From positions 1-23,043 of IMG/VR virus record IMGVR_UViG_3300045988_132558: 23,043 nt of DNA; one strand, 5' to 3'. Both the position numbers and the translations under genes were made by a program. Positions 8,166-8,537 of this stretch are shown in pieces. This stretch comes from a virus (lineage: Duplodnaviria; Heunggongvirae; Uroviricota; Caudoviricetes). Positions within the stretch are counted from its first letter, which is position 1. Each line of letters opens with the position of its first letter. The notes below the pieces were generated by a model. The model was given only the letters and a program-made list of their open reading frames with translations, did not search any database and was not told where the DNA came from.

Positions 8166-8412
8166 TTTTTTTGTGTGCTCATGGTTGTTGCTTTTCTGTA
8201 AGAATATCAATAATTTCAAGATATATACACATAGGGAAAACTTTGTTCGGTAGTCTATCGATACAGCGCAAAAGGATGGCTCGCTGCCAAAGTGAAAGCT
8301 TACGCTGATAATGAGATACACAAAGCTGATGTATGCAAACAAGTACGCCGCGAGGCTACAGTCGAGTTTGATGAACCTGATGCGAGCCCCCGATTCCTGT
8401 CCTGAAAGGGAT

Positions 8413-8440
8413 ATAGCCCCCCTGGTCGCGGGTCCTTTCC
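8413..8440. other. Putative cos (cohesive-end) site
   Basis: GCCCCCCTGGTCGCGGGTCCTTTCC lies about 110 bp upstream of the Nu1-like gene and shares the TCGCGGGT core and context with my recollection of the lambda left end (GGGCGGCGACCTCGCGGGTTTTCGC). Inference by analogy. Confidence 0.3.
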
Positions 8441-8537
8441 GAAATTCAAAACACCGAGGGTCGGTAGACGCGCAAAAACTCACTCATTTTTAGTATTTTT
8501 TCATTTTGGGTATTTCCGGTTCCGGTGAGGATTTTTA

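Follow-up and report, generated by a model that had tools for sequence, protein, structure and literature searches.

The closest described systems are the cos sites of phages lambda and N15. In lambda-like phages, cosN shows partial twofold symmetry with conserved CG pairs flanking both nicks (PMC4669245, PMC9026076), and cosQ is a highly conserved 7-bp site required for packaging termination; in lambda, the I2 segment is required for termination as well (PMC4669245). Counting from the left end of the DNA, lambda R3 occupies bp 50-65, bp 55-63 contact the DNA-binding domain of the small terminase (TerS) Nu1, and the distance from cosN to R3 is critical (PMC9026076, PMC4669245). N15, on the other hand, has what is called a "simple" cos, with a single R3 (bp 48-60), no IHF site, a gene 1 that starts at bp 89 and, inside this gene, an inverted site called rR2 at bp 249-260 (PMC4669245, PMC9026076). 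This R3-like inverted site, which we re-read from the N15 sequence, lies in the codons for gp1 residues 54-58 (PMC4669245).

The window studied here is the whole stretch of DNA that was analysed, 23,043 nt long. A sequence-only reading had proposed a cos site in 8300-8537, just before the small terminase gene, and in this general form the proposal stands: the region carries what appears, from its sequence, to be a lambda-type layout. The window is a lambdoid E. coli prophage that combines lambda-type head genes with a contractile, P2-like tail. The 501 bp around cos match the chromosome of E. coli strain C41 at 100% identity, and the same region is found at one place, at 95-100% identity, in 444 of 5426 complete E. 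coli genomes (about 8%), with 97% in strains E24377A and SE11. Among phage records, Escherichia phage vB_EcoM-705R4 is the only close match; its record is 27 kb long, and its ends are not at cos. As read from the annotations and ORFs, the left part of the prophage runs from a Q antiterminator through holins and an endolysin to a few small ORFs (two of them on the minus strand) and a gene-free gap. The right part holds terS, terL, gpW, a lambda-family portal, and then a C-type protease and D-like and E-like head genes, with the size and order of the lambda C, D and E ORFs; the P2-like baseplate, sheath and tube genes are found downstream of the E-like gene. A scan for promoters and terminators returned background-level matches only.

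The first gene after the gap, terS (8538-9104, + strand), encodes a small terminase of 188 aa that matches PHROG 57, "terminase small subunit", over residues 1-186 (E 1.8e-39). It had been called Nu1-like by the sequence-only reading, which is right as a statement of remote homology, a profile of 10 sequences of this TerS family matching lambda Nu1 in hhalign with 94% probability (E 9e-8, residues 3-157) and N15 gp1 with 91% probability, but the protein has no Pfam match, and a sequence search of the PDB came back empty. PGAP annotates terS in strain C41 with 101 aa only, which is probably a truncated call. The large terminase gene, terL (8992-10953, + strand), belongs to the lambda gpA family: its product carries the Pfam domains GpA_ATPase (1e-45) and GpA_nuclease (3.5e-63), is 42% identical to lambda gpA across 645 aa, and is the enzyme expected to nick cosN.

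A tblastn search with the 188-aa TerS turned up relatives with genome records that start a short way upstream of terS. In what follows, a slash marks a boundary of the 12-nt end. The record of Aeromonas phage phiARM81ld begins with GGGCGTTAGACC/CGCATG, with the terS ATG at bp 79, and its right end reads ...GGGTCCTTTTTTGCACCTTTTTCCCTTGCG. The record of Aeromonas phage PhAER-1 carries a 12-bp terminal repeat, GGGCGTTAGACC, the same 12-mer as the start of phiARM81ld. In the record of Vibrio phage Valp1, remnants of Illumina adapters are fused to GGGGCATGACCT on the left and to ...CCCCACG GGGGCATGACCT on the right. The same 12-mer at both ends of a record is the product expected from end repair (fill-in) of a 12-nt 5' overhang. 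The record of Hafnia phage yong2 shares the left half GGGTCCTTTCTGAGTTTTGAAACACCGAG with the window and is broken precisely at the place of the homologous right nick. The related Vibrio phage HY01 encodes a protelomerase, a hallmark of prophages that are linear plasmids.

Scanning with an alignment of TerS sequences added 3 loci from species genomes (GTDB) and 50 from IMG/VR, and the family set was built of 44 non-redundant loci in about 17 lineages, with TerS identities that range between 99% and 32-35%. One order is common to all loci that include sufficient sequence upstream: GGGTCCT, about 22 variable nt, G/GG, 10 variable nt, /CGCA(A/G)AA, CTC.CTC.TT, a T-rich stretch, and then (G/A)TTTCCGGTT(T)CCG(G). 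In window coordinates, the conserved blocks are 8430-8437, 8458-8460, 8469-8474, 8481-8485, the T-tracts, and 8513-8521, with little conservation between them. The family comparison, thus, tells the constrained positions of cos (cosQ, the nick flanks, the TC.CT block and the site in the R3 position) from a 12-nt end that drifts freely.

The cosQ heptamer GGGTCCT, the packaging-termination signal, lies at 8430-8436 (+ strand), is at least 90% conserved in the 44 loci, and belongs to a conserved block that extends to about 8437. To its right, the window sequence GAG/GGTCGGTAGACG/CGCA aligns column for column with ACG/GGGGCATGACCT/CGCA of Valp1 in a MAFFT alignment of the 44 non-redundant upstream regions, which places the predicted cohesive end at 8459-8470; the terminal repeat of PhAER-1 and the record start of phiARM81ld fall in the same columns. 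It would be a 12-nt 5' extension, GGTCGGTAGACG, with predicted nicks at 8458/8459 on the top strand and 8470/8471 on the bottom strand, each of these positions being given within about 1 nt. cosN as a whole, taken as this end plus 2 flanking bp on each side, covers 8457-8472. The predicted end starts 79 bp and finishes 67 bp before the terS ATG, which is then bp 80. The distance from cosQ to the predicted nick is 29 nt, versus 30 in lambda, phiARM81ld and Valp1, and the left flank of the top-strand nick is AG instead of CG, the CG of the right flank being present; the left nick position is, therefore, uncertain by about 1 nt. The flanks G/GG and /CGCA are at least 90% conserved, and the inner bases vary freely between lineages. 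Bp 7-12 of lambda-like ends are reportedly not under selection, and the free drift of the inner bases fits this; here, it also reaches the left half of the end, where position 3 is T versus G in lambda. A hairpin on the minus strand (8452-8466) spans the predicted nick and is not conserved beyond the close group; a 16-nt repeat (8465-8480 and 8693-8708), which is not conserved across the family, was treated as a chance occurrence. A metagenome scan with the R3-like motif, in which 12 of the 80 matches were true cos contexts, gave no E. coli-type contig ending at cosN.

Adjoining cosN on the right, the conserved segment CGCAAAAACTCACTCATTTTT (8471-8491, + strand), delimited from the conservation profile and the alignment, occupies the position of lambda I2, whose function it may share; it has TCACT at bp 22-26, where lambda has TCGCT. 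It is followed by an A/T-rich spacer (8492-8511) with T-runs that are conserved in all lineages, and then by the predicted cosB site for the small terminase, ATTTCCGGTTCCGGT (8512-8526, + strand, bp 54-68 from the left end), a tandem repeat of TTCCGG in the R3 position. Within the R3-like site, TTTCCGGTT is at least 90% conserved in the 44 loci. In every lineage, the R3-like motif is found at bp 53-57 from the end, whereas its distance to the start codon of terS is as short as 0 nt in Valp1 and as long as about 70 nt in lineage L016; a fixed distance to the DNA end combined with a variable distance to the ATG points to a role that would be anchored to cos rather than translational.

The search for IHF sites and Nu1 sites before 8538, which had been suggested together with the cos proposal, returned one candidate of the second kind, this R3-like site; the IHF consensus, with up to one mismatch, is absent from 8217-9319. 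No copies of R2 or R1 were found upstream of terS, and the 67 bp from cosN to the ATG do not show the complex cosB pattern R3-I1-R2-R1 of lambda, 21, phi80 and Gifsy-1. The predicted cosB, thus, matches the simple, N15-type architecture, not the specificity group of N15.

The likeness to N15 extends into terS. An inverted R3-like copy, GAACCGGAA on the + strand and TTCCGGTTC on the − strand, is found at 8718-8726 (− strand, bp 260-268) in the codons for E61-P62-E63, where it forms a perfect 9-nt inverted repeat with 8514-8522 (TTCCGGTTC there and GAACCGGAA at 8718-8726), with 195 nt between the arms. In most lineages, AACCGGAA(AC) is found at the same aligned place, despite differing amino acids in the surrounding acidic linker, and in the Vibrio group AACCGGAA is extended to AACCGGAAAC; the copy is missing in three lineages (L016, L043 and L063). 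A codon alignment of 14 lineage representatives has P62 encoded by CCG in 12 of 13 cases and E63 by GAA in all 14, whereas other conserved prolines of TerS use CCG in only 1/14 to 5/12 cases and conserved Glu and Lys residues elsewhere have mixed codons; the remaining codon-invariant sites are found only in the overlap of terS and terL, from residue 152 on. It is possible that the intragenic copy is held by selection at the DNA level, and it might serve as an accessory site. The copy changes together with R3, being of the GGTTGT type in N15 and of the TTCCGG type in the present TerS family. This leads to a broader idea, to which we would give somewhat less than an even chance: a simple cosB with a remote inverted copy in terS may be the standard, ancient layout of this whole small-terminase family, in phages of Escherichia, Aeromonas and Vibrio, and not an oddity of N15 and a handful of prophages. 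If so, conservation at the DNA level and the joint change with R3 would argue that rR2-type sites are functional TerS contacts, closing, for example, a DNA loop of about 200 bp at the initiation of packaging, and not accidents.

Taken as a whole, the locus would be the cos of a lambdoid E. coli prophage, built like that of lambda or N15, and we hold the following account of packaging to be highly probable. TerS, through its N-terminal helix-turn-helix, would bind the tandem TTCCGG at 8512-8526, the cosB site in the R3 position, and anchor the gpA-type TerL about 47 bp away on cosN. TerL would cut with a 12-bp stagger, at 8458/8459 on the top strand and 8470/8471 on the bottom strand, leaving GGTCGGTAGACG as a 5' single-stranded extension at the left end of the virion chromosome, where the head genes lie. 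Packaging would then run rightward through the head and tail genes, until the next cos of the concatemer, where cosQ (8430-8436), cosN and the block 8471-8491 would be read as the termination signal. With a lambda-type cos just before terS, the lysis and moron genes should form the right end and the head genes the left end of the predicted packaged chromosome, an orientation already given by the sequence-only reading.

It is on the place of the cut that our reading departs from the earlier one, which had taken as the cohesive-end region a GC-rich segment, GCCCCCCTGGTCGCGGGTCCTTTCC, put at about 8413-8440. The segment does exist (8416-8440), about 110 bp before the terS ATG at 8538; its claim to be cosN comes from its richness in GC upstream of terS and from a "core", TCGCGGGT, shared between window 8426-8433 and lambda bp 12-19. 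This 8-mer is, however, at chance level, with two occurrences versus 0.84 expected, a number that 20 of 100 shuffled sequences reach. As the earlier reading had recommended, we aligned the window with lambda cos, joining the ends of the lambda genome and aligning the junction locally to 8200-8600. The only exact match is a longer one, the 13-mer CGGGTCCTTTCCG, which is found at window 8429-8441 and lambda 48472-48484 and occurs once in the window versus 0.01 expected (counting matches with up to one mismatch); outside it, the gapped alignment has no significance by itself. The lambda counterpart of the 13-mer, situated 19-31 bp left of the nick, includes the heptamer GGGTCCT, so that it is not the cohesive end: the likeness to lambda cos is real, but it concerns cosQ. 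Moreover, the TCGC part of TCGCGGGT is not conserved even in relatives with an 87% identical terS (L028-L032), in which homology starts exactly at GGGTCCT and everything to its left is replaced by unrelated sequence; the GCCCCCCTGGTCGC half of the segment, thus, falls outside cos. The ends of Valp1, PhAER-1 and phiARM81ld also align 29-30 nt to the right of GGGTCCT. We, thus, read the flagged segment as cosQ plus an unconserved flank, the predicted cohesive end lying about 30 bp further right, at 8459-8470, and that the segment is itself cosN is now hardly credible. A smaller displacement, with the cos layout right and the nicks or overhang slightly different here (an 11-nt end, or a register off by 1-2 nt), comes to mind because lambda, phiARM81ld and Valp1 have 1 bp more between cosQ and CGCA. 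The spacing of 29 nt and the AG left flank speak for it, as does the ambiguity of a regex-based register at GACGCGCA, but MAFFT places the 1-nt gap in the spacer between cosQ and cosN, and the yong2 record, which has the same 29-nt spacer, ends precisely where the homologous right nick would be. If bp 1 is set at 8459, the TTTCCG core falls at bp 55-60, as in lambda R3, whose GTTTCCG is at bp 54-60, and twofold symmetry is at its best, with a modest 5 of 11 positions, no better than in lambda, versus 3-4 after a shift of 1 nt. We, thus, find a shifted register quite improbable and keep bp 1 at 8459.

Other explanations bear on how, or whether, the site is used. A small terminase of unknown family is often that of a pac phage, which is as much as can be said for headful packaging with permuted ends, in which case the conserved motifs would be a pac site or regulatory elements; nothing in the locus supports it specifically. 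It is opposed by a TerL of the gpA family with 42% identity to lambda A, by the fixed ends with 12-nt duplications in relatives and by the conservation of cosQ, and can practically be set aside. The prophage could also be defective and its cos a relic that is no longer used: in the PGAP annotation of strain C41, the protease gene is flagged as partial and terS is shortened, and the group's single phage record measures 27 kb. On the other side, no head or tail ORF of the window is interrupted or unusually short, the cos subsites are the same in all copies from E. coli, E. whittamii and metagenomes, whereas adjacent positions differ, and 444 genomes carry the element at 95-100% identity; these observations are no proof of activity, and we consider a relic very unlikely. 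One may, finally, accept the ends and doubt the reading of cosB: the TTTCCGGTTCCGG motif and its intragenic inverted copy would then not be TerS sites at all, and would be recognized by a host or phage regulator or act as an element of terS mRNA or translation. Repeats containing CCGG could bind other proteins, just 12-14 nt separate the motif from the ATG region that follows it in the groups of E. coli and Aeromonas, and the three lineages without the inverted copy fit such a view. Its place at bp 53-57 from the end, kept over ATG distances from 0 to about 70 nt, does not; it coincides in position with the R3 of lambda and of N15 and in sequence with the lambda R3 core (PMC9026076, PMC4669245). 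In addition, members of the TerS family keep S14, R16, R19 and L21 of the helix-turn-helix with few or no exceptions, matching the conserved DNA core. A role foreign to TerS is, thus, unlikely in our opinion, and we retain the tandem TTCCGG as the predicted TerS site.

Several consequences follow for this type of prophage, present in about 8% of complete E. coli genomes. The virion ends are predicted in a testable form (5'-GGTCGGTAGACG, 8459-8470); a mis-assigned subsite is corrected, the lambda-like stretch being cosQ and not cosN; and the linear genomes of this phage group can be oriented and annotated correctly, including a full-length terS. In a specificity group other than that of N15, an intragenic inverted site of the N15 kind also shows conservation at the DNA level.

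The cos arrangement itself is of the ordinary lambda-like kind and is already known. With lambda, the window shares the cosQ GGGTCCT about 30 bp to the left of the nick, within the 13-nt identity; a predicted 12-bp staggered site with CGC on its right flank; TC.CT at bp 22-26; the R-site core (G/A)TTTCCG at bp 54-60; and the order cos, terS, terL, with a gpA-family TerL (42% identity) and then W, a portal and ORFs of the size of lambda C, D and E. It differs from lambda in its predicted end, GGTCGGTAGACG versus GGGCGGCGACCT, with 6 of 12 matches and mismatches that include position 3, in the normally conserved left half; in its left flank, AG versus CG; in a short cosB without R2, R1 or the IHF site I1 (terS from bp 80 versus bp 191); in a TerS that is only a remote homologue of Nu1 (19% identity); and in its contractile, P2-like tail. 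With N15, it has in common the one site in the R3 position, the lack of an IHF site, an early start of terS (bp 80 versus bp 89 in N15), CGCA(A/G)A after the right nick, and, some 200 bp further downstream, an inverted R3 copy where terS encodes the linker (residues 61-63 versus 54-58). The R sequences, however, are unrelated (TTCCGG repeats in the window versus GAGGTTGTTGTT in N15), and the site of the window is a tandem duplication; packaging specificity should, therefore, differ, the two sharing an architecture but not a specificity group. N15 gp1 is, moreover, only remotely like the TerS of the window (91% in hhalign), and N15 retains a near-lambda cohesive end.

The nearest relatives of this cosB and terS are found in phages of other hosts. 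The TerS proteins of phiARM81ld, PhAER and Valp1 are 45-57% identical to that of the window over the aligned parts, and their loci have the same order and spacing of cosQ, the 12-nt end, the CGCA block, the T-rich spacer, TTTCCGGTT(T)CCG and the intragenic AACCGGAA; the 12-nt end of phiARM81ld matches that of the window at 9 of 12 positions. They differ from the window in their hosts and in the rest of their genomes, in a distance from cosQ to the nick of 30 nt instead of 29, and in a CG instead of AG left flank. The left part of cos has other partners. Escherichia phage SerU-LTIIb and Hafnia phage yong2 have a near-identical left cos part, GGGTCCTTTC..(N)..GAAACACCG(A/G)G/GG, and SerU-LTIIb has CGCAAAAAC as well (82% over 50 nt), whereas SerU-LTIIb carries R3-R2-R1 repeats in the style of lambda and 21 together with another type of terS, and yong2 has another type of cosB and a TerS that is only 17% identical. 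With its left part common to SerU-LTIIb and yong2, and its cosB and terS common to the Aeromonas and Vibrio phages, the cos of the window reads as a mosaic, a joint of recombination such as is expected in lambdoid phages.

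Illumina adapter remnants are still found at both ends of the record deposited as the "complete genome" of Vibrio phage Valp1 (GenBank OR500391; comparison loci L069/L070), a phage with a small terminase (TerS) of the same family as that of the window: TTCCCTACACGACGCTCTTCCGATCT precedes the genome and AGATCGGAAGAGCACACGTCTGAA follows it. These remnants are a database artefact, yet also a marker of the physical DNA ends. Two other phages of this TerS family also bear repeats at their record ends, namely a clean 12-bp terminal direct repeat in PhAER-1 and, at the right end of PhAER-5 (GenBank PQ495742, locus L011), the 12-nt cos repeat with two additional T bases; both are filled-in cohesive ends remaining in the assemblies. 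Rather than at the predicted nick, two IMG/VR viral contigs (L030 and L056) end 25-28 nt to its left, within or adjoining cosQ; they may be assembly breaks resulting from a coverage drop at cos.

Two repeats involve the predicted cosN. An inverted repeat, CACCGA-GGG-TCGGTA (8452-8466), spans the predicted top-strand nick and scores in a scan as a terminator-like minus-strand hairpin; its left arm, not its right one, is common to phages yong2 and SerU-LTIIb. A 16-nt direct repeat (8465-8480 and 8693-8708, TAGACGCGCAAAAACT and TAGACGCGACACAACT, 81% identical) places within terS a copy of the right half of cosN and its flank; it is not conserved among the relatives and is, therefore, probably due to chance.

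In strain C41, RefSeq/PGAP predicts terS as a 101-aa protein whose start corresponds to window position 8799 (L002 15600-15905, against 8538-9104 in the window), whereas the 188-aa ORF starting at 8538 is backed by PHROG 57 and by all relatives. PGAP also marks the C-type protease of this strain as a partial pseudogene and makes no call for a D-like gene, even though both ORFs of the window, 12754-14061 and 14061-14390, are open. Where terS and terL overlap (8992-9104), the codons of the conserved TerS residues N152, Y164, S167, and D168 are invariant across 14 lineages; that terL is translated from the same stretch in its own frame is the probable cause.

Left of cos, two minus-strand ORFs (7164-7634 and 7920-8165) without any Pfam family, the latter matching PHROG 5191 of unknown function, separate the lysis cassette from cos and resemble morons inserted at the right end of the chromosome. 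Everything to the left of cosQ has been exchanged for other sequence in the 87%-identity relatives.

Six Vibrio-group loci (L012, L045, L047, L052, L054, and L058) carry an additional copy of TTCCGGTT in direct orientation, at roughly +581 to +608 when counted from where the terS alignment begins; this copy, found in several lineages of the group close to the terS stop and the terL start, is absent from the window. In SerU-LTIIb (KU052038, L007, 2500-2720), cos lies directly right of the LT-IIb enterotoxin genes, and an ORF spanning it is annotated in the record as "NU1-like". The left half of this cos is about 82% identical to that of the window; its cosB displays R3, inverted R2, and R1 repeats in the style of lambda and 21 (GATCCGTTCTTCTTC, AGAAAGGATC, and GAGATCCTTTCTTCTT).
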